Shown: positions 6,867-25,128 of the stretch, in pieces
Numbering within the stretch: the first letter of the stretch is position 1
Layout: each line of letters begins with the position of its first letter
Source: a virus
Lineage: Duplodnaviria > Heunggongvirae > Uroviricota > Caudoviricetes
IMG/VR virus record: IMGVR_UViG_2529292907_000021
Reading direction: 5' to 3' (one strand)
DNA: 42,935 nucleotides
The notes under the pieces: generated by a model
Seen by the model: only the letters and a program-made list of their open reading frames with translations
Told to the model about the DNA's origin: nothing
The model's database searches: none
Translations under genes and position numbers: made by a program

Positions 6867-8821
6867 CAGTAGACCCTCGGTTGAAGTTGCTGTGTGAGGC
6901 GAGAATTAACACCTGATTGGCGGTCTGCCACTTCCCGGCCGGTAGATGCTGGGTCATTCGCACCGTAAATATTGATGTTGGTTTCCTGGCTTATCTGGGA
7001 GGCCGCCTGGTTTGCCGCGAGGCTCGCCAGTGGGGAATTCCATTGCCCGTAACCTTCCTTGCGTGACATCGCCTGCAGGAGGTTACTGAACTGCTGCGGA
7101 TCGCTCAGATTCAGCTTATCTTTAGTTCCCACGCCCATCATGTTGGCGACAAAGTTGGAGTACGCCTCCGGATCGTTGTTGTCACTAGCCGGGGCGTACT
7201 TGTGGATGATGTCCCAGATTGTCTGTAGCTTCTGGAAGCCGGCAGCAGCACTTTTCCCGGTGAAGTAGAGCCGAATCTGCCGGGCCATTGCCATCCACCC
7301 ATCCATCGGCGTTGCATGAGAAGTAAACCCGGTACCGCCTACCGGGCGCAGATTACCCGGGTTGTTGTTCCGGTCTGCAAGTGTTTTGCCTGATCCGCCG
7401 CCATCTCCTAACAGCCATCCATTGAAAGTCTGCCCGATGCTTCTCGGGTCAAAGCCAGTCCTGTTTTTAATCCATTCGGCAGTGTTATTGGCGCTATCCG
7501 ATACAGCAGGAAGTGCATCCTGCCCCTTCCCCTGAGAAAGCAGGTTTTTACCAATTGCGTAAGCATCTGACCATCGCCCCTCGTTGATGGCGTTTATCAG
7601 GTCGCCAATCATCTTGATCATCTTGCCAAATTCACCAAATTGCTTGGTGAGGTTGTCGATGTCGCCTTTCAGGGTCCAGTTTTTGAGGTTGATATTGAGC
7701 AGCTTGGCTATCTCGACACCGATCGCTTTCACTGAATCTCGCAGTTCCCCCAGTGACTTCAGGGCAGCGTTAATCTCCGGCTCCCATTTATCCCAAGCGA
7801 TAAGACTTTTCCCGCCCTCCTTCCACGTCTGGTAATCCTCAATAAGCGCCAGTATTGCGCCGCCGAGGGCTATCACAAGGCCGATTGGCGACTTGAGAAA
7901 CTCCGAGTTAAGAACCTGCCAGGCGGATACCAACGCAGAAACTAGGGCAATCAGCTGCTGTATATCCGGCGGCAGCTTTTTAAACCACTCAATCAGGCCG
8001 CCGACCGCTTGCGAGACGCGCCACGCCATCTGAGCTATCACATCCGCCGCGAAGAGCACACCCTTCACAACCTTTGTGACGACGTCCTCTATCTTCGGCC
8101 AGTTCTCCAACATCTGCTTACTGAGGTTATTCAGCGTGCCGCTCAGGCCACCAGCCAGGTTTGAGCCGACCTTATCGCGCAGGATCCCCAGCAGCGACAC
8201 AAATTGCCGCATTGAGGTCATGAATTTGTTGGACTGCTGCGCCGCCTTATCCGCGTCAAAACCAGTCTTCTGCATCATCGACTGGTATTCAGCCGTGAAG
8301 CCAGACATCCCACGGCGCATCGACATCAGGGTGTTTTCGTCGATGCCCAGCATCTGCGCGTACTGGTTTGCCCGGTAATACGGCATATTGCTGAGCCGCT
8401 GACCAACACCAGTGAAGATGGACGACATATCGCGCATTTGCCCGGACGCATCACGCGTCTGCACACCCAGACGATTCAGGAAGCCTTCAGCTCCCGGATT
8501 GCTTCGCATAAAACGCGCCAGGCTCTCCAGTGAGTTCTGGGCCGCCTCAGCACTGGATCCGGTTTGGGATGCAGCGTAGCCAAGGGCCTTAATACCGTTT
8601 ACCGAAGCACCGGTCCGCTGTGACGCCCAGTAGAGCTTATCCAGTCCATTCGCGATCGAGGTGGTAAAACCGACAATGGCCAGCGCCGTGGATTCCACTG
8701 CGGCCCCCAGCTTAACAACGTTTGCCGCTACGCCTTTGAGCGTGGCTTCAAACTTCGCCTGGCCCGCGCCGTCGATATCGAACCCCAGAGAGACCAGGTA
8801 ATCACGGATAGTATCAGCCAT
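6866..8821 (-). CDS. Tail tape measure protein
   Basis: 651-aa ORF, largest in the tail block, directly after the frameshifted chaperone pair; alanine/glycine-rich helical regions and a C-terminal Gly-rich segment typical of tape measure proteins. Confidence 0.65.
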   Translation of the reverse strand: MADTIRDYLVSLGFDIDGAGQAKFEATLKGVAANVVKLGAAVESTALAIVGFTTSIANGLDKLYWASQRTGASVNGIKALGYAASQTGSSAEAAQNSLESLARFMRSNPGAEGFLNRLGVQTRDASGQMRDMSSIFTGVGQRLSNMPYYRANQYAQMLGIDENTLMSMRRGMSGFTAEYQSMMQKTGFDADKAAQQSNKFMTSMRQFVSLLGILRDKVGSNLAGGLSGTLNNLSKQMLENWPKIEDVVTKVVKGVLFAADVIAQMAWRVSQAVGGLIEWFKKLPPDIQQLIALVSALVSAWQVLNSEFLKSPIGLVIALGGAILALIEDYQTWKEGGKSLIAWDKWEPEINAALKSLGELRDSVKAIGVEIAKLLNINLKNWTLKGDIDNLTKQFGEFGKMIKMIGDLINAINEGRWSDAYAIGKNLLSQGKGQDALPAVSDSANNTAEWIKNRTGFDPRSIGQTFNGWLLGDGGGSGKTLADRNNNPGNLRPVGGTGFTSHATPMDGWMAMARQIRLYFTGKSAAAGFQKLQTIWDIIHKYAPASDNNDPEAYSNFVANMMGVGTKDKLNLSDPQQFSNLLQAMSRKEGYGQWNSPLASLAANQAASQISQETNINIYGANDPASTGREVADRQSGVNSRLTQQLQPRVY

Positions 8822-9427
8822 TGTTCTGGGCTCTCCATTTGGCTACGCGCGCGTCATTATCGTCACGCATATCAAGGTAATCGTTAAGCAGCGCGATGCG
8901 GCACAGGTCAACTGCACCGCTATCGAGGTCTTTCTGATCGAGGTTGAAGGCGAGCGCCGGGCGAAGGATGTAATCCTCACCGCCCGGCAAGGTGTTGAAG
9001 GTTATTCCACTGGCAGGGTATTCGTCTCGCCGGTAGGAAGTCCTTGCAAAAAATTTCCCAGAGAATCCGCGACCACCCGCGCCACCAACTGCAGCATTAC
9101 AAACAGGTCGATATCGTCGAATGCCATGGTGCCCTGCTGACACACTGGCACCCAGGCGTTTAGGTGTTTTCGTGCAACCACCTGCAGGCAAGGGAACAGG
9201 ATCGCATCCACATCAGCATCGCTTAGGCCGGAAACAGCATCAGCAATCTTCGGCACGATGCTCTCCAGCGCGCCTTCGGTGTCTTTATCACTTAGCTTTA
9301 ACTGGATATTACGGAAGTCCGAGACCAGACCTGCCAGCACCGGCAATAGCTTGCGGGATACTTTCAATTGCTCGAACACGCTCAGCTTAGCGATACGGTA
9401 CTGCTCATTTTTGATGGTGATTTCCAT
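8814..9427 (-). CDS. Tail assembly chaperone pair (G-like product 9002..9427; GT-like extension to 8814 by programmed -1 frameshift)
   Basis: Two overlapping ORFs in frames related by -1 between tube and tape measure genes; slippery heptamer A-AAT-TTT on the coding strand (plus-strand ~9049-9056) near the end of the upstream frame; after the slip the sequence reads KFFARTSY, matching ORF 8814..9191. Confidence 0.55.
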
Positions 9428-9430
9428 GGA

Positions 9431-9871
9431 TTAGTACTCCCCCAGGAATGGGTCGATTTTGATGCAGTCGAAAACCCAGGCCACTGTCCCGCCTTCTTTA
9501 GCATTCTGCCAGTCAGGGTGTTTCTGGAATGCCCCACCGCGCGCTGTCATGATGTCGCCGGAGGCCGTATTGCGAAATACGAATACGTTGTTGCCCCACA
9601 GCGATGAGGACTGGCTCTGTGCGTTATACGCCAGCGACAGTTTTTTGTTCACCGGAGATGTCTTCAGCAGGTTGACGGTTACCGTCCCGGCTTTACCCGC
9701 GTGCAGGGAGTGCATACCTTCGCCATCTGCCCCAATCGTCATGGTGTTTTTGTTTTCCACCATGGCGACGGTGATACCTTCTTCGGAGTTTGCGGAACCT
9801 GCACCAAGATCAATCACCCCGGTTGGGCCAGTCATTGACCCCGTGATATCCAGAAAAGAATAAGTGCTCAT
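9431..9871 (-). CDS. Tail tube protein
   Basis: 146-aa ORF immediately downstream of the sheath gene and upstream of the chaperone pair. Confidence 0.5.
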   Translation of the reverse strand: MSTYSFLDITGSMTGPTGVIDLGAGSANSEEGITVAMVENKNTMTIGADGEGMHSLHAGKAGTVTVNLLKTSPVNKKLSLAYNAQSQSSSLWGNNVFVFRNTASGDIMTARGGAFQKHPDWQNAKEGGTVAWVFDCIKIDPFLGEY

Positions 9872-9882
9872 TCAGGGTCTCC

Positions 9883-11376
9883 TTAGCGCACCACGTCGAT
9901 TAATACGTCAGCGAAGTGGATAGCACCCGTCAGTTTGGTTGCCACCTGGATCACCGGAGCTTTTCGCGCCTCACGGTCTGCCTGAGCTTGCGCATTGAGC
10001 GAGTTAGCGAAGACGTAATAGCCTTTGGTCAGCATATCCCCTGCCGTCAGTTGCCCGACGTCACCACCGTTCCAGATACCCGGAGCCACCAGGCCGTTAT
10101 TCGCTGACTGGTCCATCGATTGCTCAATGTTGGTTACCAGGCGCGTCACACCGGCTTCAGTCTGTGGAATTTTGGTGGTGGAGGTGTAAAGCAGGTTCCA
10201 GAGGTTGTTCTGGACGTAGTTCTGCAGCCAGTCGAGCCCGTGACGTTCGTCGAAGAAGTCGCCGTTAGACATCACCCCTTCCTGGATGATTGCTGTGTCG
10301 TTGGCATAACGCACGAACACGTTGCAGTTTTTGGCCTTCAGCGTATCGGCTTGCTGCGCGGTGATAGTCTCGGCAGTGATGCCCGGCTCCTGCTTGAACT
10401 TCAGGGTAATGGTGGTGTTATTGCCCAGGAAATTGACAGTGAACGCACGCCCGAACGCAGAAGCTGCTGCATAAGGCGTTTTGCTGTACTGGCAGAACAC
10501 GCGCCCGTAACCCGCAGCTTTAAGCTTGCTGGCAATGTCCATGGCGTTCGTACCATCAAGCACCGTGGCATCAGCTGAAGTCACGCCGTACACGCGAGAA
10601 TCACTGGCAGAGCCAATCAGCGCGGCGACATCGAGGTGATCCTGGTCTGTCATCGTCGCATCAGCAATCACCAGGCCATACCAGTCAGCGGAATATCCCA
10701 GCGCCGCCGCGACAGAAGGAACAGCAGAGCCTGCATGTGCCGCTGTACCGTTTACTGCAACCGGATGGCTACCCGCATCGATACCCATCAAAGGAGCCAG
10801 ATCCGTTCCTGCCCCTGCTGCTGATGGAATGCCAACAATGGATGCCGCACCGGTTGTTGGTGAGGTGATCAGGAAGTGCGAGGTCACCGCATTCCACGTC
10901 ACAACCGCGCCTGCCAGTTTGGTGCTGATGGCCGTTGCCACTTCTGCCAGGGTTGTCACCGCCGACAGGTCAACAGCACTGATATTTTTTGCAGCACCAT
11001 CAATGGTGATATTCAGCGCGCCATCGGTGACAGCGCTGAAGTTTTCAATACGCTGCTCAGAGGCATTCAGCTGCGCACCCGTGAGTGTGCCTGCGGTTGC
11101 TGGAATTGGCGTTCTGTCCATTTTGCCAATGTACAAATCCAGTGGCTGGGGCGACTGCTGGAAGTAAAGGTTTGCGGCCTTGTACTCTTCTGACGTGGTG
11201 CCGAAGTCAGCGGCCACACTTTCAATATCGTTATACAGACGCATAACTTCTGGCGCGGTCAAAACACCGGACGTGCCGAGAGCCAGCAAAGCGCCGAAGT
11301 CCCGGCCCTGCGCGGCTCGTAGCGCGAGCGAAACCTGCACGCGTACGACGCGTGAGACTGATAAGCCGTTAGGCAT
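9883..11376 (-). CDS. Tail sheath protein
   Basis: 497-aa ORF preceding the tube gene; size and order are characteristic of contractile-tail sheath proteins. Confidence 0.6.
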
Positions 11377-11378
11377 GA

Positions 11379-11921
11379 TTATTCTCCGAAAAATTTAACT
11401 GGAGCAGAGAGGAGCGATTTGATGCCGTACTCACGTACCGTCTTGCGGCGAAGTGTCACAGACAGGTCGTAGCGGCGTTGCCACTGGTTATTGATAAGTT
11501 CTGGTGCCGGAATGATGCGACCAACCTCGCCAAGCGTCAGGCCAACCCGATTCAACTCCGCATTGTTCTGCGAGACGAACAGGCCGCTGCGGAACGTTTT
11601 GGCAAATGACTGGCCTGCTGGGCCGTAAAAGCAGCAGAGCACCACAAGCGTTTCGTATTGCCACTGGTAATCGGTGTCTTCATCTTTGGTTACAGAGGCC
11701 GGGTTTGCGGCGTCCTGAAAGTCTGAGATGTTGAACCCGCACCAGTTGGTACCAAGCTCCGGGATCGTCGGCTGAGGATCGGTAAATCGAGGTCGGGACA
11801 TTCCGTCAGGTAGACCGGATACACCGCGTATCCAGCGGCTAAGTTCACGCTCCAGCTCCTGATCATACTGTGGCACCGGACTGGTTGGCGTCAGGTATCC
11901 GGGTTGCGTGGTGTTATTCAA
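11379..11921 (-). CDS. Phage head-tail joining / tail completion protein, unknown family
   Basis: 180-aa ORF between the capsid block and the sheath gene; positional. Confidence 0.4.
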
Positions 11922-12300
11922 CTGACGTACCTCCGTTGAACTCCATCAGCTCGCAGTGTGCCTGAACGAATCCTGCACCGTAGGACGTGTACGGATCCAC
12001 AAACGTGACGCGGTAATGTCGCCCGTTATAGGTCACCACATCAGCATCCAGCCCAGGCTTGCCCTGAGTCAGTCTGAACTGCGTCACCACGAGGATCGCC
12101 CCTCCAATAGACTGCCCGGCGGCCATACGCTTTGCTTCCAACGAGCGGTCAACCGTAACTACCCCGTTGAACGGGATGTCCTGGCCGGTGTTAGTAGCGA
12201 AGCCATCAGCGTCAAGCACCTGCGTCTTCCGCGTGCACACCAGTGTGTAATCACAGAAATCAGGGTCTAGCAGGACATCCGTCACATCGAGAAAAGGCAT
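11914..12300 (-). CDS. Phage neck/tail completion protein, unknown family
   Basis: 128-aa ORF, tightly packed with neighbours; positional. Confidence 0.4.
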   Translation of the reverse strand: MPFLDVTDVLLDPDFCDYTLVCTRKTQVLDADGFATNTGQDIPFNGVVTVDRSLEAKRMAAGQSIGGAILVVTQFRLTQGKPGLDADVVTYNGRHYRVTFVDPYTSYGAGFVQAHCELMEFNGGTSVE

Positions 12301-12806
12301 TATTTTTTACCTCTCACAACGTAGGTGATTGAGCGCAGGAGATAGCCATGGGCATAGAGTGGCTTGTCGCCTGGCAATCCCTGCGCCCGGCGGTTAGCTT
12401 TGGTCATGTCAGAGATAGGAATTAGGCGATCGCCATCAGTAATAACGCGCTTCGCACCGTTTGAGGCAACCAACCCGGCCTTTTCCAGCTCATTCTCTGC
12501 AGCTGAGAATTGCCCATCCAGCGCCATGCCTGCAGCGGCCTTGAGGTGCTCCGACGTCACTGCCTGAGTATCCTCGATCCCGATATCCAGAAAAGGACGC
12601 GGAGGTAATGTCACCTCGCGGCCGCCAAGCCTGACTGTTGCCCCTGTAGACTGCAGATAGCCAATCTCAGCGTTATTCAACTCTTCCCCGTCCTCGCGAA
12701 CCGCGTTGGATTCTGGTATGCCCACCAGCACATCCATCTTCGACAGCCTGTCCAGGCCAGCGAGAACAGAGGCGGCGTTATCCGCCCTGACTTTCACGCC
12801 GCTCAT
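12300..12806 (-). CDS. Phage head completion/neck protein (start chosen at ATG overlapping upstream stop)
   Basis: ORF 12300..12845; the ATG at 12806 forms an ATGA overlap with the stop of the upstream gene, typical of phage morphogenesis operons. Confidence 0.4.
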   Translation of the reverse strand: MSGVKVRADNAASVLAGLDRLSKMDVLVGIPESNAVREDGEELNNAEIGYLQSTGATVRLGGREVTLPPRPFLDIGIEDTQAVTSEHLKAAAGMALDGQFSAAENELEKAGLVASNGAKRVITDGDRLIPISDMTKANRRAQGLPGDKPLYAHGYLLRSITYVVRGKK

Positions 12807-20618: not shown

Positions 20619-21326
20619 TTATTGTTGGGCTGTCTGCTTTCCCTCGCGCAGTTTATCCATGTGCGCCGCCCACGCTTCAGGCGGGCAGTTCGACGGCGTG
20701 ACGATGCAGACCTTTCCGTAGCTCAGCCCAGCCAGATCGACATTCACTTCCGTTTTATTGCTCATGTCGATGCCGGTGAGCTGCGCAGCGTTCTTGATGT
20801 TCGGGGCCACCTGCCCAAATTTCTTTTCTTGCAGCGCTTCTTTCGCCGATTTGTAGGAAAGCTCAGCCAGGTCTTTCGCATCGAATGAGACGAGCAGCGC
20901 GGCATCCTGACGTAGTTCTCTGATGCGCCTGCGCACATCCGGGCGTTTGAACAGGATGGAAGCCTGTGAGTCAGCTCGCGACGGTGAGTAGCCAGCGCAT
21001 ATCGCCGCCTCTTTCTGCGGCATGCCTCGCGCAATGTTCTGCGCAAACTGCTCATGCTGTGGTTTAAGGATGCCCGCGCTTTCCTGCGCAGTCTCGCCGT
21101 CAGTCGGTGAAAAAGCCTCAACCACAACTACGTGTGGCATCTGGCTTTGCGAAGTTTTGCGCACTTCCTTCTGCGCAGTTTTTTGCGCAGCTGGTTTTTT
21201 AATGTACCTGCGCGCAGATGTGTAATTCAGTCCCTGTGCTTCGCACCACTCTTTCGGTGATATACCCGTTTTGGCATGCTCGGCGAGGAACTGGTCTTGC
21301 AGCGCTCCCCAGTCCGGTTTTGCCAT
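20619..21326 (-). CDS. Terminase small subunit (DNA-binding)
   Basis: 235-aa ORF directly upstream of the large subunit; N-terminal HTH-like segment ([22 protein letters not shown]) and basic regions. Confidence 0.55.
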
Positions 21327-21349
21327 GATTATGTCCTATGGTTAAAGCC

Positions 21350-21380
21350 ATTAAAAAAGCCACTCGAAAGTGGCCTTTGT
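21350..21380 (-). terminator. Intrinsic terminator on the minus strand just upstream of the terminase small subunit gene
   Basis: Minus-strand hairpin AAGGCCACTTTCGAGTGGCTT followed by TTTTTTAAT. Confidence 0.5.
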
Positions 21381-21646
21381 GATGGCAATTTTTGCTTCAA
21401 ACGTGGCTATTCATTTGGATACCCCGACTTTATGCTGACCATCACAATTGGCCTACCACGCTTTGTTATGCGTCGGTCTGGTTCTTGCCTTTGATGATGG
21501 AGAGACATAATTTCTGTTGAAGTGGAGCCAGCACATCGAAAACAAGCTGCTGCTCTGCAGGGAGCTTTTTCGATGCCATAGGTACCTTCCTCTTACAAAG
21601 GTTCGTGCTATATTAGAAATCAACAACTTGATTTAAAGGAACAGAT

Positions 21647-22030
21647 ATGGAACAGAAGCCTGCTATATATATCGGACGTGCCCGCTCTGCGATTGTAGAA
21701 GACAATGATATTTACGGTTGCGAGAGGGGTATACACATAGAGGAAGCAATAACTGCATCAGTCAAACGCAACAAAATATTATCATCTGAAGCGCTTTCTC
21801 ATATCGACAAAATCAGGAGCATTCTTTTAGACAACGCTGCCACACTTGAGCGAGAAATTGGAACTGAAAACAAAGATAAGGTTCTTTCGGCGGTCAATGA
21901 ATTACCTAATAGCAGAGACTCCGAAGCTCTTGATAAGTTATTAACAATTTCAAGCCTATGTTCGAACGCAGTCACTATCTGGCCTGTTATAAAACCGATT
22001 GTTATTAGCTTAATCGGAGCTGTTGGTTAG
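21647..22030 (+). CDS. Opposite-strand moron protein, unknown function (127 aa)
   Basis: Plus-strand ORF with AAAGGAA RBS 6 nt before the ATG, visibly AT-rich, inserted between the lysis cassette and the terminase genes, both on the minus strand. Confidence 0.5.
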   Translation: MEQKPAIYIGRARSAIVEDNDIYGCERGIHIEEAITASVKRNKILSSEALSHIDKIRSILLDNAATLEREIGTENKDKVLSAVNELPNSRDSEALDKLLTISSLCSNAVTIWPVIKPIVISLIGAVG

Positions 22031-22138
22031 ACTTCCATCATAAAATGTATTTTCGATGCAAATCTAACCTCTTTGTTAGCATGCAAATATGTGCTCTGCG
22101 GGCAACATAAAACCGTTAAACTGAATAAGCTTTGAAAA

Positions 22139-22345
22139 TCATTCGCAATTTGACTGCCATGCTTTGTTGTACGCCAGCACATCACGTTTGGTCTGCTTGT
22201 CCATAACGTCAATGTCATGGTCGGTCAGGTAGATGGGCTTAACCCAGTCGCAAGCAGTATCAACGACAACCGGGACGCTTCCACGATTCCCGCAGCTCGC
22301 GATCAACATCGTCATCAGGCATATGGCTAACAGTCTGCTGTACAT
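22139..22345 (-). CDS. Outer-membrane spanin Rz1-like lipoprotein (o-spanin), overlapping the i-spanin gene
   Basis: 68-aa ORF in a different frame overlapping the 3' end of the Rz-like gene; N-terminus MYSRLLAICLMTMLIASC contains a lipobox (IASC). Confidence 0.5.
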   Translation of the reverse strand: MYSRLLAICLMTMLIASCGNRGSVPVVVDTACDWVKPIYLTDHDIDVMDKQTKRDVLAYNKAWQSNCE

Positions 22346-22538
22346 TGCTGGCCTTTTTGGTTACTTCGACGCGGCGTTCTACGGCTGCCTTGGTGGCTGC
22401 GGCATTATCGTCGGTGCGCTGTTTATCTGATTTGGCTTCGGCTTTTTCGCGTCCACGCATGCTGCCCAGGCCAAACGCACCCAGCACAAGCATTACGATC
22501 AATCCGATTGCCGCCAGAATGGCTTTCAGTTTCGTCAT
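22260..22538 (-). CDS. Inner-membrane spanin Rz-like (i-spanin)
   Basis: 92-aa ORF immediately downstream of the endolysin; N-terminal TM helix followed by a charged helical region; overlapped by the lipoprotein ORF. Confidence 0.5.
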   Translation of the reverse strand: MTKLKAILAAIGLIVMLVLGAFGLGSMRGREKAEAKSDKQRTDDNAAATKAAVERRVEVTKKASNVQQTVSHMPDDDVDRELRESWKRPGCR

Positions 22539-23080
22539 AGGCTCACACGCTCCCGTACCCAGCCATACACGAATGACTTGTTAGCCGGGCGCTGCTCTGC
22601 CAGCTCGAGATAGCGCTGCCCTTGGCTGCAATTCAGTGCACGGAGCAATACTGATTCCCCTTCGCTCCCGCGTTTAGCCAGGAACGATTTCAGGGCGCTG
22701 ATGCTACGAGGGCCAATCTGGCCGTCGGCGATTAAGTCTGGGTAAAGTTTCTGCTGGTCGTTGAAGACATTCAGCCAACGCTGGAACCATTTCACCTGCA
22801 CTGATGGCCCCATGTTCACGCCGGTGTCGCAGAGTTCAGCGGCGATGGCCGGAGACACGGTAGCTACCTGGTCGAAGCGTGGACCATACCAGTAATCAGC
22901 CTCGAGTATTTCGAGTGCCTGCTGGCGTGTCAGGTTGCGCATATCACCGGTAAAGCCATGGGCGCGTGCCGTTGCCTGAGTGATTCCCCAGTTCGTCGGG
23001 CCGCCCTTGTCGTTCGGGTGATTAACGTATCCACCCTCTTTGCCGAGGATGCGGTTGAAGATATCGTCTTTGGTCATCAT
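22535..23080 (-). CDS. Endolysin, glycoside hydrolase family 108 with C-terminal peptidoglycan-binding domain
   Basis: N-terminal motif ILGKEGGYVNHPNDKGGPTNWGIT is the GH108 signature; followed by a PG-binding-like domain; located between holin-like and spanin genes. Confidence 0.8.
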   Translation of the reverse strand: MMTKDDIFNRILGKEGGYVNHPNDKGGPTNWGITQATARAHGFTGDMRNLTRQQALEILEADYWYGPRFDQVATVSPAIAAELCDTGVNMGPSVQVKWFQRWLNVFNDQQKLYPDLIADGQIGPRSISALKSFLAKRGSEGESVLLRALNCSQGQRYLELAEQRPANKSFVYGWVRERVSL

Positions 23081-23352
23081 TCAGCCCTTACGACTTTTGC
23101 CAGATTGCCTTTGGCTCGCCACACAGCAATGCAGATAGCCAGGTTGAGGAACAACTCACCCGGGTCAACGTTGCTGTAATGGCCGAGAAGAATACGGAAA
23201 GCGGTGAAGCTTGCCGACAGGATCAGGAAGTAAGCCATCCAGGCATAACCCGGGCGGTGCCTGCGTCCTGTCTTACTGAAGAACATCAGACGAAACACGA
23301 TCGCCATGCAGATAATCGCGTTTGCATCCACGATGACGGAATGCCATGTCAT
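23077..23352 (-). CDS. Holin/antiholin-like small membrane protein
   Basis: 91-aa protein with 2-3 predicted TM helices, translationally coupled between the holin and endolysin genes. Confidence 0.45.
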   Translation of the reverse strand: MTWHSVIVDANAIICMAIVFRLMFFSKTGRRHRPGYAWMAYFLILSASFTAFRILLGHYSNVDPGELFLNLAICIAVWRAKGNLAKVVRAE

Positions 23353-23747
23353 TTCCCTTCCTCCTCCAGCCCGGGCATCTTGCCGTTGCGCGACTTGGCA
23401 ACAACTCGAAGCAGGACTGCGACGGAAACGGAAGCAGCTACAAGCGCACCAACATTCGGTGACACTTCGATACTGACCGGCGGCTGTAACAGGCCAAGGG
23501 CCGTATTAATGACCCCGGCGATAATCTTGGCCATGGGAACGGAGAAGAACACGCCCCCCATGAATGAGATGACCGCGAAGAGCATCTGCTTCCATAGTTG
23601 ATGAGGCTCTGAGGTCAGCACATACATTGCCGCCCCGGCCAGCGCACATAACATTACGCCAGGTGTCGCCTCCGGGAACATAGTGGCGAAAGTGATCCCT
23701 ACCGTAGCGGAGGTCACCCCACTGGCAATTGTGATTGGCTCAGACAT
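23349..23747 (-). CDS. Holin-like membrane protein
   Basis: 132-aa protein with multiple hydrophobic helices and a charged C-terminus; first gene of the lysis cassette. Confidence 0.5.
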   Translation of the reverse strand: MSEPITIASGVTSATVGITFATMFPEATPGVMLCALAGAAMYVLTSEPHQLWKQMLFAVISFMGGVFFSVPMAKIIAGVINTALGLLQPPVSIEVSPNVGALVAASVSVAVLLRVVAKSRNGKMPGLEEEGK

Positions 23748-24004
23748 AGTTATTCCGTGTGTAGAGGGTCAGGCTTCACGAGCAGGATTTATCAACAAAG
23801 CACGTAGTGATTGATTCCCGTGAGCCTGAAATGAAAAACCAGCGATAGACTGGTAAAATGAATGGGTAGCAATATATGAATTTATTCCGAAGATATTATC
23901 TTCGGTATAGCCTAAATTTTAAAAGTACTGGATGAGATGGTATTTAGAAAAAAATCATTTAAAATCATACACGCTGATGTTTTTATAATTTATAAGGAGA
24001 GTGT

Positions 24005-24295
24005 ATGAGTAGCATGCTTGACCCACAGCAATACAATAAAGACATGCGAGAAAAGCAAATTGACCTCATGCTTACTGCGATGGGGCCAACGAATGAGAAG
24101 TCGGCTTTTCTTATGGCTTTAATGATTAAACACTCTGATGATCCGGTAGCAACTATCAACGAGATTGGCGATTGCATCAATGCGGTCTACGCAGCTGGCG
24201 AGAACACCGACACTTCCGCGGGTTCAACGTTCAGCGAAATGAAGATCATGTACGGCAGCGCCGTGAGCATTTACCACAAAATTAAAGATATTTAG
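24005..24295 (+). CDS. Opposite-strand moron protein, unknown function (96 aa)
   Basis: Plus-strand ORF with AAGGAG RBS and a TATAAT element just upstream, followed by its own terminator; AT-rich; lies between the Q-like gene and the holin gene. Confidence 0.5.
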   Translation: MSSMLDPQQYNKDMREKQIDLMLTAMGPTNEKSAFLMALMIKHSDDPVATINEIGDCINAVYAAGENTDTSAGSTFSEMKIMYGSAVSIYHKIKDI

Positions 24296-24301
24296 CAAAG
24301 T

Positions 24302-24328
24302 AAACCCCGCATCATCGCGGGGTTTTTA
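24302..24328 (+). terminator. Intrinsic terminator of the 24005..24295 moron
   Basis: Hairpin AAACCCCGC-ATCAT-CGCGGGGTTT followed by a T-run. Confidence 0.6.
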
Positions 24329-24340
24329 AAGGTACTGTTA

Positions 24341-24372
24341 AATAAAAAGCCCAAGGCGTTCCTCGGGCTTGA
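24341..24372 (-). terminator. tR'-like intrinsic terminator on the minus strand downstream of the Q-like gene
   Basis: Minus-strand hairpin AAGCCCGAGG-AACG-CCTTGGGCTT followed by TTTTATTT, ~70 bp downstream of the Q-like stop. Confidence 0.4.
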
Positions 24373-24438
24373 AAACTTATTTACTGCCAGCGCATACAAC
24401 AATGGCACAATATCAGATTTACACGAAATATATGCTAA

Positions 24439-25128
24439 TTAGTTCATTTCTGCAATACCTTGCTGATAATTTGCTGCCTTTTGTTGTGAACGTGATCGCG
24501 AAATATGATGTAGCGACTGGGAATCGAGTCCCTTATACAGGCTGATCATCGCATCGTAATGTTCCACGTAATTCTGAGACCAGTTTGTTTTGTTAACGCC
24601 CACCAGCGTAGCGAGATCACCATAATGATACGGATCCTTCCCGGATAACTCGCCTTTCACATCCTGCGCCGCCAACCATATCAACTGCCGTAAACGGTCA
24701 ATGGTCTTCTTCGCCACCTTTTTTCCGGCCAGATGCTCGCAGAATTTCGACCACGCCCACTGAGTAATCAACACCTGATTATCCCAGCGCACATTCTCGC
24801 TGTAGTTCCATAGCAGCCAGGCCTTCTGGTGTTCTTCGAGCGTCATCAGTGCACGGCGCCACGATGAGGTGGAGTATTCCACCGGCTGCACCAGTGGAAT
24901 ATGCGCCCCCTTGGCATGCGACTGTTTGCCCGGTATTGGTGGATTATCCAACGTAATCATTTTCCCGGTTACCTCATCCATTACGCGAGGCTTCTTCCTC
25001 TTAAAGGTGCCAGTATCGAACTGCGCATTCTCCAGCCAGGCCATTAACTGCCCTTTCGTCGCACCACTTAAATCAGCGGTGGCCACCATCAGCTGCTGGC
25101 GCACGTATTCGAGAAATTGAGTATTCAT
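24439..25128 (-). CDS. Late-gene antiterminator Q-like protein
   Basis: 229-aa ORF between NinG and the lysis cassette, followed by a promoter/terminator-like region; assignment is mainly positional. Confidence 0.45.
   Translation of the reverse strand: MNTQFLEYVRQQLMVATADLSGATKGQLMAWLENAQFDTGTFKRKKPRVMDEVTGKMITLDNPPIPGKQSHAKGAHIPLVQPVEYSTSSWRRALMTLEEHQKAWLLWNYSENVRWDNQVLITQWAWSKFCEHLAGKKVAKKTIDRLRQLIWLAAQDVKGELSGKDPYHYGDLATLVGVNKTNWSQNYVEHYDAMISLYKGLDSQSLHHISRSRSQQKAANYQQGIAEMN

Follow-up and report, generated by a model that had tools for sequence, protein, structure and literature searches.

Morons are independent transcription units added to phage operons (PMC3594210). The candidate moron described here is a 127-amino-acid plus-strand open reading frame (ORF) at 21647-22030 of the IMG/VR virus record IMGVR_UViG_2529292907_000021 (42,935 nucleotides (nt), analysed at full length and hereafter called the window), a lambdoid Escherichia coli prophage in which the ORF lies reversed within the Q-dependent late operon. 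The equivalent slot in lambda holds bor, a small single gene that is the first after Rz/Rz1, convergent with them, 31 nt after Rz (lambda 46459-46752, complement) and ahead of cos and the packaging genes; bor is expressed from the prophage (PMC7067206, PMC3594210) and is among the few genes to be so when the prophage is repressed (PMC7067206). In phi80 the slot holds taiEcA (phi80 44365-44979, complement), likewise an opposite-strand gene between lysis and packaging in a Q-controlled late operon. TaiEcA, whose gene has been described as a moron locus, is constitutive in the lysogen and protects it from other lambdoid phages by inhibiting tail assembly, with escape mutations mapping to tail proteins (PMC11364771). 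Its level falls when Q is over-expressed and drives late transcription, an arrangement termed a "noncontiguous operon", which offers an experimentally tested model for the regulation of such a layout; the gene was left unannotated by PADLOC and DefenseFinder when it was found, and the Tai family was defined through BLAST/PSI-BLAST homologues (PMC11364771). A further point of comparison is the HK97 gp15-type moron (Hendrix/Juhala), which like the window gene is a single small gene of deviant guanine-cytosine (GC) content that has its own expression signals (candidate ones in the window), is set between two conserved late genes and is missing in relatives (PMC3594210), but which differs in lying in the tail operon on the same strand and in encoding a membrane protein.

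The sequence comparisons set out below indicate with high confidence that the window ORF is a real accessory gene of the prophage, autonomous, horizontally mobile and belonging to a new family. The overall explanation that we consider probable is that of an intact moron, reversed in the late operon at the lysis-packaging junction, expressed in the lysogen and acting by binding. Features of this kind are commonplace in lambdoid prophages. The first-pass annotation had called the ORF a moron at a classic location, and both parts of that call are supported: presence/absence and deviant GC fit the published definition (PMC3594210), alongside candidate promoter and terminator elements, and the location is the one that bor and taiEcA occupy.

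The evidence that the ORF encodes a protein comes primarily from comparison with a close relative. Besides an identical copy of the protein, a database of 5.8 billion proteins contains one relative at 81% identity (P0002), encoded in a different lambdoid E. coli prophage (locus L004; GH19 endolysin, Terminase_4/TerL, HNH) at the same place and in the same orientation. Homology between the two loci sets in sharply at 21578, 69 nt ahead of the ATG, and is continuous over 21578-22481. Within it, 64 of the 384 nt of the gene differ, with no insertions or deletions over 127 codons, and the differences are distributed 18/6/40 by codon position; the Nei-Gojobori ratio of nonsynonymous to synonymous substitution rates (dN/dS) is 0.18 in the annotated frame, compared with 0.33-2.6 in the other five. 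Nucleotide identity is 83.3% in the ORF, 73.9% in the promoter and 5' untranslated region, 53% in the 3' spacer and 75.8% in Rz1, making the ORF the most conserved part of the shared segment. These comparisons identify ORF 21647-22030 as a genuine coding sequence kept by purifying selection. The first-pass annotation had named two findings that would undo its proposal, namely an ORF with neither transcription or translation evidence nor conservation, and an ORF that is a fragment of a larger disrupted gene; the conservation and selection just described answer the first, and the second is countered by relatives of 124-128 amino acids, close to the length of the window ORF.

These data bear directly on the explanation that the ORF is spurious or decaying, lying in AT-rich recombination junk at a mosaic junction, which is the least probable of those we considered. 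The cassette does hold recombination debris (the terS remnant at 21460-21579, described below), no annotation was found for the ORF, and its family is very rare. Set against this are the purifying selection, a 17-member family spanning three genera, a confident predicted fold, and the length of the ORF: when the 765-bp cassette was simulated 5000 times under a first-order Markov model, an ORF of at least 127 amino acids arose in 1.0% of the runs, although conservation is a stronger argument for a real gene than this chance-ORF simulation.

The features of the locus are as follows, in order along the window.

20619-21326, minus strand: functional small-terminase gene (terS), left flank; matches Pfam Terminase_2 (7.2e-08), phrog_51 (2e-37) and phrog_32222 (4e-153)
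21353-21376, minus strand: terminator-like hairpin 5' of the functional terS; stem GCCACT-cgaa-AGTGGC at 21359-21374, followed by T6
21389-22153, no strand assigned: variable cassette at the lysis-packaging junction, with unrelated DNA in its place in related prophages
21460-21579, minus strand: 5' remnant of a second small-terminase gene; 37 codons (21466-21579) and a strong ribosome-binding site
21606-21614, plus strand: candidate extended -10 element TGcTATATT, 32 nt before the ATG, with putative promoter activity
21617-21634, plus strand: palindrome AAATCAA-caac-TTGATTT between the -10 element and the ribosome-binding site, a possible operator or 5' stem-loop
21636-21640, plus strand: Shine-Dalgarno sequence AAGGA, 6 nt ahead of the ATG, kept as AAAGGA in L004
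21647-22030, plus strand: moron ORF, 127 amino acids, ATG start, TAG stop
22025-22077, plus strand: terminator-like hairpin; its stem (22025-22069) overlaps the stop codon and is followed by UCUUUGUU; fold -11.4 to -13.7 kcal/mol
22139-22345, minus strand: Rz1 (phrog_1275, 1.7e-31), embedded in or overlapping Rz
22260-22538, minus strand: Rz (phrog_1026, 4e-33); the spanin genes Rz/Rz1 (22139-22538) are convergent with the moron
22535-23080, minus strand: GH108 endolysin, beyond Rz, with two holins further on

All four elements that the first-pass annotation had read from the letters of this region are confirmed. The ORF has a good ribosome-binding site (the AAGGA listed above), and the gap of about 800 bp that it was said to occupy between minus-strand Rz1 and terS measures 812 bp (21327-22138), with both minus-strand flanking genes confirmed by their Pfam or PHROG matches. 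The AT-richness is equally clear: GC content is 0.37-0.41 over 21600-22200 against 0.52-0.60 in the flanks, and 0.405 for the cassette 21389-22153; the ORF itself has a GC content of 0.409, and 0.359 at third codon positions, compared with 0.518 for the whole window. Two corrections are called for. The gap does contain the ORF, but it additionally holds the 37-codon 5' remnant of a second terS. Likewise, the minus-strand terminator noted before terS is present as a hairpin with T6 that precedes the terS start codon by 27 nt (the terminator scan gave the hairpin at 21359-21374 on the plus strand only, and its minus-strand form, GGCCACTTTCGAGTGGCTTTTTT, was read directly from the sequence), but it belongs to a conserved module upstream of terS and not to the moron.

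That assignment follows from related prophages, in which we checked for presence or absence of the gene at the same junction. Four E. coli prophages (L008, L009, L010 and L026) have lysis cassettes 81-86% identical in nucleotide sequence to that of the window and lack the moron; between Rz1 and terS they carry unrelated cargo on the late strand, comprising one 66-amino-acid ORF in L008, hypothetical genes and a DUF2560 protein in L009, small ORFs and an HNH gene in L010, and an S1 peptidase with small ORFs in L026. In L008 and L009, homology to the window ends at 21387/21388 and restarts at 22154/22155, with L010 restarting at 22146; these breakpoints therefore delimit the variable cassette as 21389-22153. 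Immediately to its left lies a block of about 60 bp (21328-21388) with the terminator hairpin. L008 and L009, both of which are without the moron, share this block at 93% identity, and it is part of the terS module. Among complete E. coli RefSeq genomes, only a 57-bp terminator block was matched, recurring in five genomes. The block 21328-21388 looks like a conserved module boundary or a recombination joint.

The left part of the cassette carries a trace of how this junction was assembled. The remnant at 21460-21579 is 89% identical to the first ~120 nt of terS from E. coli MB20, after which homology stops with a 1-nt insertion or deletion and a stop codon. In locus L032, an intact 217-amino-acid terS stands at the place of the remnant, 67 nt from the moron ATG, and the locus matches window positions 21467-23200 at 93% identity, with the moron and the lysis genes in one block; a third junction is found behind the same terS stub in L031. 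The block of moron and lysis genes must therefore have been linked to that terS at an earlier stage, before recombination placed it on the present packaging module. On this sequence comparison, the remnant is a recombination scar with no part in the function of the moron. We also considered a toxin-antitoxin or other two-gene system formed with the divergent 37-amino-acid ORF, and rejected it: this ORF is the terS remnant and is absent from L004.

Comparison across more distant prophages shows how closely the gene is tied to its slot. Contexts were readable for the window together with L001-L003, L004-L006, L011-L013, L014-L015, L016, L020-L021, L022 and L031-L032, and in every one of them the gene runs against the late operon, lies upstream of packaging, and converges on a spanin gene, the last of the lysis genes, at a distance of 40-240 nt. 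This pattern is kept with three endolysin families (GH108, GH19 and T4-type lysozyme), at least two spanin types, and at least five packaging types (Terminase_2/3, Terminase_4/TerL, DUF2280/Terminase_3, lambda-type Nu1/GpA and Terminase_6). L022 is the lambda-type Nu1/GpA prophage, and there the family gene sits exactly at lambda's bor position. In L024, the gene lies upstream of a sixth packaging type, a Hendrixvirinae-type TerS, and since this locus ends before the lysis genes it neither confirms nor contradicts the pattern. Across the readable contexts, position and orientation are the family's most conserved property.

Such constancy invites the explanation that the protein works in the lytic programme of its own phage, by modulating the spanin, endolysin or holin or the hand-over from lysis to packaging. 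This would account for the constant attachment to the end of the lysis cassette, with spanin adjacency kept between family members down to 22% identity, and for the co-inheritance of the ORF and the spanin genes as a block in L004 (21578-22481) and L032 (21467-23200). However, the ORF is opposite to the late operon and therefore is not co-transcribed with the lysis genes, and its candidate partners are non-homologous across contexts (the three endolysin types, at least two spanin types and several holins). Prophages whose lysis cassette is 81-86% identical do without the gene, and lambda and phi80 fill the same slot with cargo unrelated to lysis. We thus regard a role in the phage's own lytic programme as unlikely.

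No conserved late-strand partner of the kind represented by AtiEcA was found upstream of the moron, the neighbours differing between the contexts compared; the window family in this respect differs from the TaiEcA/AtiEcA pair, the adjacent small late-strand ORF of the window being the terS remnant. Separately, we observed a 485-amino-acid late-strand protein with no Pfam domain directly upstream of the family gene in three otherwise different prophages (L004 3394-5667, L014 4378-5835 and L024 2377-3834), accompanied in L004 by proteins of 196 and 268 amino acids; it forms an unannotated module between lysis and HNH/Terminase_4-type packaging. In L014, an Enterobacter contig, the lysis cassette abuts TrbI, CagX, VirB8 and TrbL (8752-12375) and not a Q antiterminator region, which suggests a truncated prophage beside a conjugative element.

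As for expression, the candidate extended -10 element falls inside a 19-nt block, AAAGGTTCGTGCTATATTA, that is identical in the window and L004, and homology between the two ends about 30 nt further upstream, at 21578. The palindrome that follows is matched in the same alignment columns of L004 (5971-5988) by ATGAC-caaa-GTCAT, that is, by two pair-preserving double changes; as an RNA stem, it is weak and not significant (-3.5 kcal/mol, z -1.35). At the other end of the gene, L004 keeps a hairpin, built on another stem sequence and followed by GCUUUGUU, after the homologue, and the L014 homologue is followed by a strong GC-rich hairpin and a U-tract. A scan of 21000-24600 against Rfam gave no match inside the cassette. 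By analogy with bor and taiEcA, a sigma-70 promoter of its own would drive the gene in the lysogen, at a time when the late operon is silent. Once the prophage is induced, Q-modified polymerase would have to cross the cassette and the terminator at 21359-21374 to reach terS, and its antisense read-through may then dampen the gene.

The same convergent arrangement allows a reading in which the transcript, or convergent transcription as such, is an antisense brake on leaky late read-through into the packaging genes and the ORF is incidental. Beyond the convergence with the late operon, precedents can be cited, as a prophage antisense RNA acting in exclusion is known (STnc6030 in BTP1; PMC7067206) and the level of TaiEcA responds to Q-driven transcription (PMC11364771). 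We consider this reading highly improbable: constraint at the protein level is strong (the dN/dS of 0.18, with third-position bias), the family can be recognised in its proteins, which keep their length and motifs at 22-41% identity, while the DNA is not alignable, and the transcript appears to end before Rz1.

The family to which the protein belongs is small. A HMMER search of 1.84 billion cluster representatives returned nine relatives of 124-128 amino acids that align end to end and one truncated relative of 85 amino acids, and a profile search of the 5.8 billion proteins returned 13 clusters, every one of them named "hypothetical protein". These come from E. coli, Citrobacter freundii, Citrobacter arsenatis and several Enterobacter species. 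We aligned 17 sequences, window protein included, which outside the close pair are 22-41% identical to the window protein and have in common their length, an N-terminal repeat signature and the C-terminal motif (T/S)(L/I)CSNxV(T/S)(I/F)WP. Neither the window ORF against Pfam, PHROGs, NCBIfam and PADLOC nor all 17 members against Pfam and PHROGs gave a match above threshold, and a literature search on the family accession numbers returned no paper. In IMG/VR, scanned like GTDB (see below) under the limit that the 17-sequence alignment is too divergent to serve as a seed, three contigs carry the family gene, encoding a protein identical to that of the window. In the collections searched, the family is undescribed and confined to enterobacterial prophages.

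The occupants of the slot in lambda and phi80 are not homologues of the window protein. Homology to Bor/Iss was rejected, with BLASTP giving no alignment at E <= 100 and hhalign a probability of 0.05%; Bor is a 97-amino-acid secreted outer-membrane lipoprotein, unlike the window protein, a predicted soluble protein that lacks both a signal peptide and a lipobox. Homology to Tai was rejected likewise, the family profile scoring 0.09% probability against TaiEcA and 0.15% against a 12-sequence profile that covers the TaiEcA clade (47-100% identity) and not the most divergent Tai versions. TaiEcA is also longer (204 amino acids; Tai proteins have about 200) and bears a conserved R-N-D-L-A-H motif that is absent from the window family. 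As an observation on TaiEcA itself, which has no matching Pfam family, R95, N96, A99 and H100 of this motif are invariant in 12 sequences of TaiEcA and its relatives (phi80, locus L030, 3866-4480, minus strand), and the motif resembles the Rx4H motif of HEPN type.

We next turn to the predicted structure of the window protein, a mildly acidic polypeptide of 14 kDa (net charge -2 to -7 across the family). AlphaFold2, run on the 17-sequence alignment, gave a model with a mean predicted local distance difference test (pLDDT) score of 87.7. Predicted strands at residues 7-18, 21-23, 29-40 and 43-45 have a 22-residue periodicity (pLDDT 78-92) and are followed by predicted helices at 47-62, 64-71, 73-88, 91-105 and 112-126, with the conserved loop motif LCSNxVTIWP within this helical part (residues 47-126). 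The periodicity is matched in the sequence, where residues 7-28 and 29-50 are identical at 8 of 22 positions and follow the I-x-I...N-x-I pattern of PbH1 repeats. Matches to NosD in 8 of the 17 members and to Beta_helix in 6 of the 17 are sub-threshold (best E 3.2e-05); the window protein scores 16.2-16.4 bits against Pfam gathering cut-offs of 25.9 and 23.6 (PF13229/PF05048), and the family profile also matches a genuine beta-helix protein of 1491 amino acids (P0012). The beta-helix resemblance is thus real at the level of the repeats and below every curated threshold. With PbH1 proteins (Beta_helix PF13229, NosD PF05048, TIGR03804) the window protein shares the two 22-residue repeats (residues 7-50), but it has only two rungs and no catalytic groove, and its beta part is fused to a four-helix bundle. 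The predicted fold is accordingly a two-rung beta-helix stub (7-50) capped by a four-helix bundle (47-126), a reading taken from predicted strand and helix positions rather than from coordinates, and in which two rungs are fewer than define a beta-helix fold. A profile search of Protein Data Bank sequences gave no significant match, and fold searches returned generic bundles only, with the arrangement of stub and bundle in no solved or viral predicted structure.

The C-terminal end of this model bears on the explanation that the protein is a superinfection-exclusion factor anchored C-terminally in the inner membrane, a functional analogue of Bor/Cor/Sie-type proteins. The last 20 residues, AVTIWPVIKPIVISLIGAVG, are hydrophobic, with a Kyte-Doolittle 19-residue mean of 1.94 for the window protein (several relatives reach 1.6-1.8), and known occupants of the slot, such as Bor, act at the envelope. 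Hydrophobicity over 19 residues peaks at residue 101-108 in the window protein and 13 further members, that is, in 14 of the 17 (exceptions being residue 43 in two Enterobacter members and residue 1 in the truncated member, Kyte-Doolittle 0.52). However, the helix is hydrophobic in the E. coli clade and amphipathic in the Enterobacter clade (VLVKIYEALPG), where the mean is 1.1-1.4; as this hydrophobicity is not kept across the family, a conserved membrane anchor is therefore unlikely. The segment moreover contains a lysine and two prolines, no signal peptide or lipobox was detected (the N-terminus, MEQKPAIYIGRARSAIVEDND, is without a hydrophobic signal segment), and AlphaFold2 packs the C-terminal helix into the bundle at pLDDT 78-92. 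The tail-anchored factor is for us an explanation of low probability.

Returning to the preferred explanation of a lysogen-expressed moron, the model makes it most likely that the product is a cytoplasmic protein acting by binding another protein; binding is preferred to catalysis because conserved residues of catalytic type are absent, the near-invariant residues (N42, N63 and P113) being of another kind. The role of this binding may be the exclusion of, or defence against, competing phages, to the benefit of the lysogen. By analogy with the known occupants of the slot, we put this forward tentatively, as possible and short of probable; roles in the phage's own life cycle or at the envelope are each doubtful, and other host-modulating functions make up the remainder. 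One specific version, which we regard as quite improbable, is that the two-rung stub, held by the four-helix bundle, is a cap or mimic docking on beta-helical or beta-solenoid tail spikes, fibres or needles (or on another solenoid protein) and thereby poisons the assembly of a competitor. This would be a Tai-like outcome with an unrelated fold, and the reversed placement would switch the gene off in the prophage's own lytic cycle.

Several results weigh against this explanation, in respect of both expression and defence. A scan for consensus -35 and -10 elements found no canonical promoter and no good -35, and the promoter call draws on an extended -10 conserved in two loci. The hairpin after the window gene is imperfect (z -1.7) with a weak U-tract, and its imperfect stem caused the terminator scan to miss it. 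On the side of function, no component model of PADLOC-DB v2 matched the ORF or the adjacent 37-amino-acid ORF at E <= 1, 50,697 phage records contained neither a DNA match to the cassette nor a protein match, and 185,579 GTDB species-representative genomes contained 0 family loci in a scan subject to the seed limit given above. The family is rare and therefore not a widespread, strongly selected system, and the case for defence is made by location and analogy.

Elsewhere in the late region, we observed a second opposite-strand AT-rich ORF, of 96 amino acids (24005-24295, plus strand), between the Q gene (24439-25128, minus strand) and the holin genes. It lies by a GC trough of 0.32 at 23800-24000, is called as a gene in L001-L003, has no Pfam match, and occupies the slot where Stx phages carry stx. 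In addition, 24346-24423 on the minus strand gives a sub-threshold Rfam match to the Hfq-binding small RNA isrJ (27.9 bits, E 0.026; gathering score 37). This stretch lies directly downstream of Q, in the place expected for the late promoter with its short terminated leader transcript.

Taken in the context of bor and taiEcA, the lysis-packaging slot of lambdoid prophages is a reservoir of host-benefiting genes, with Bor conferring serum resistance and Tai phage defence. At the window locus, recombination has rebuilt the junction: a terS stub stayed behind when the block of moron and lysis genes acquired a new packaging module. If no phenotype attaches to the gene, it would be one more uncharacterised prophage moron. 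An undescribed family that keeps its slot and its orientation across very different phages is nevertheless a compact candidate for a new exclusion or defence function.

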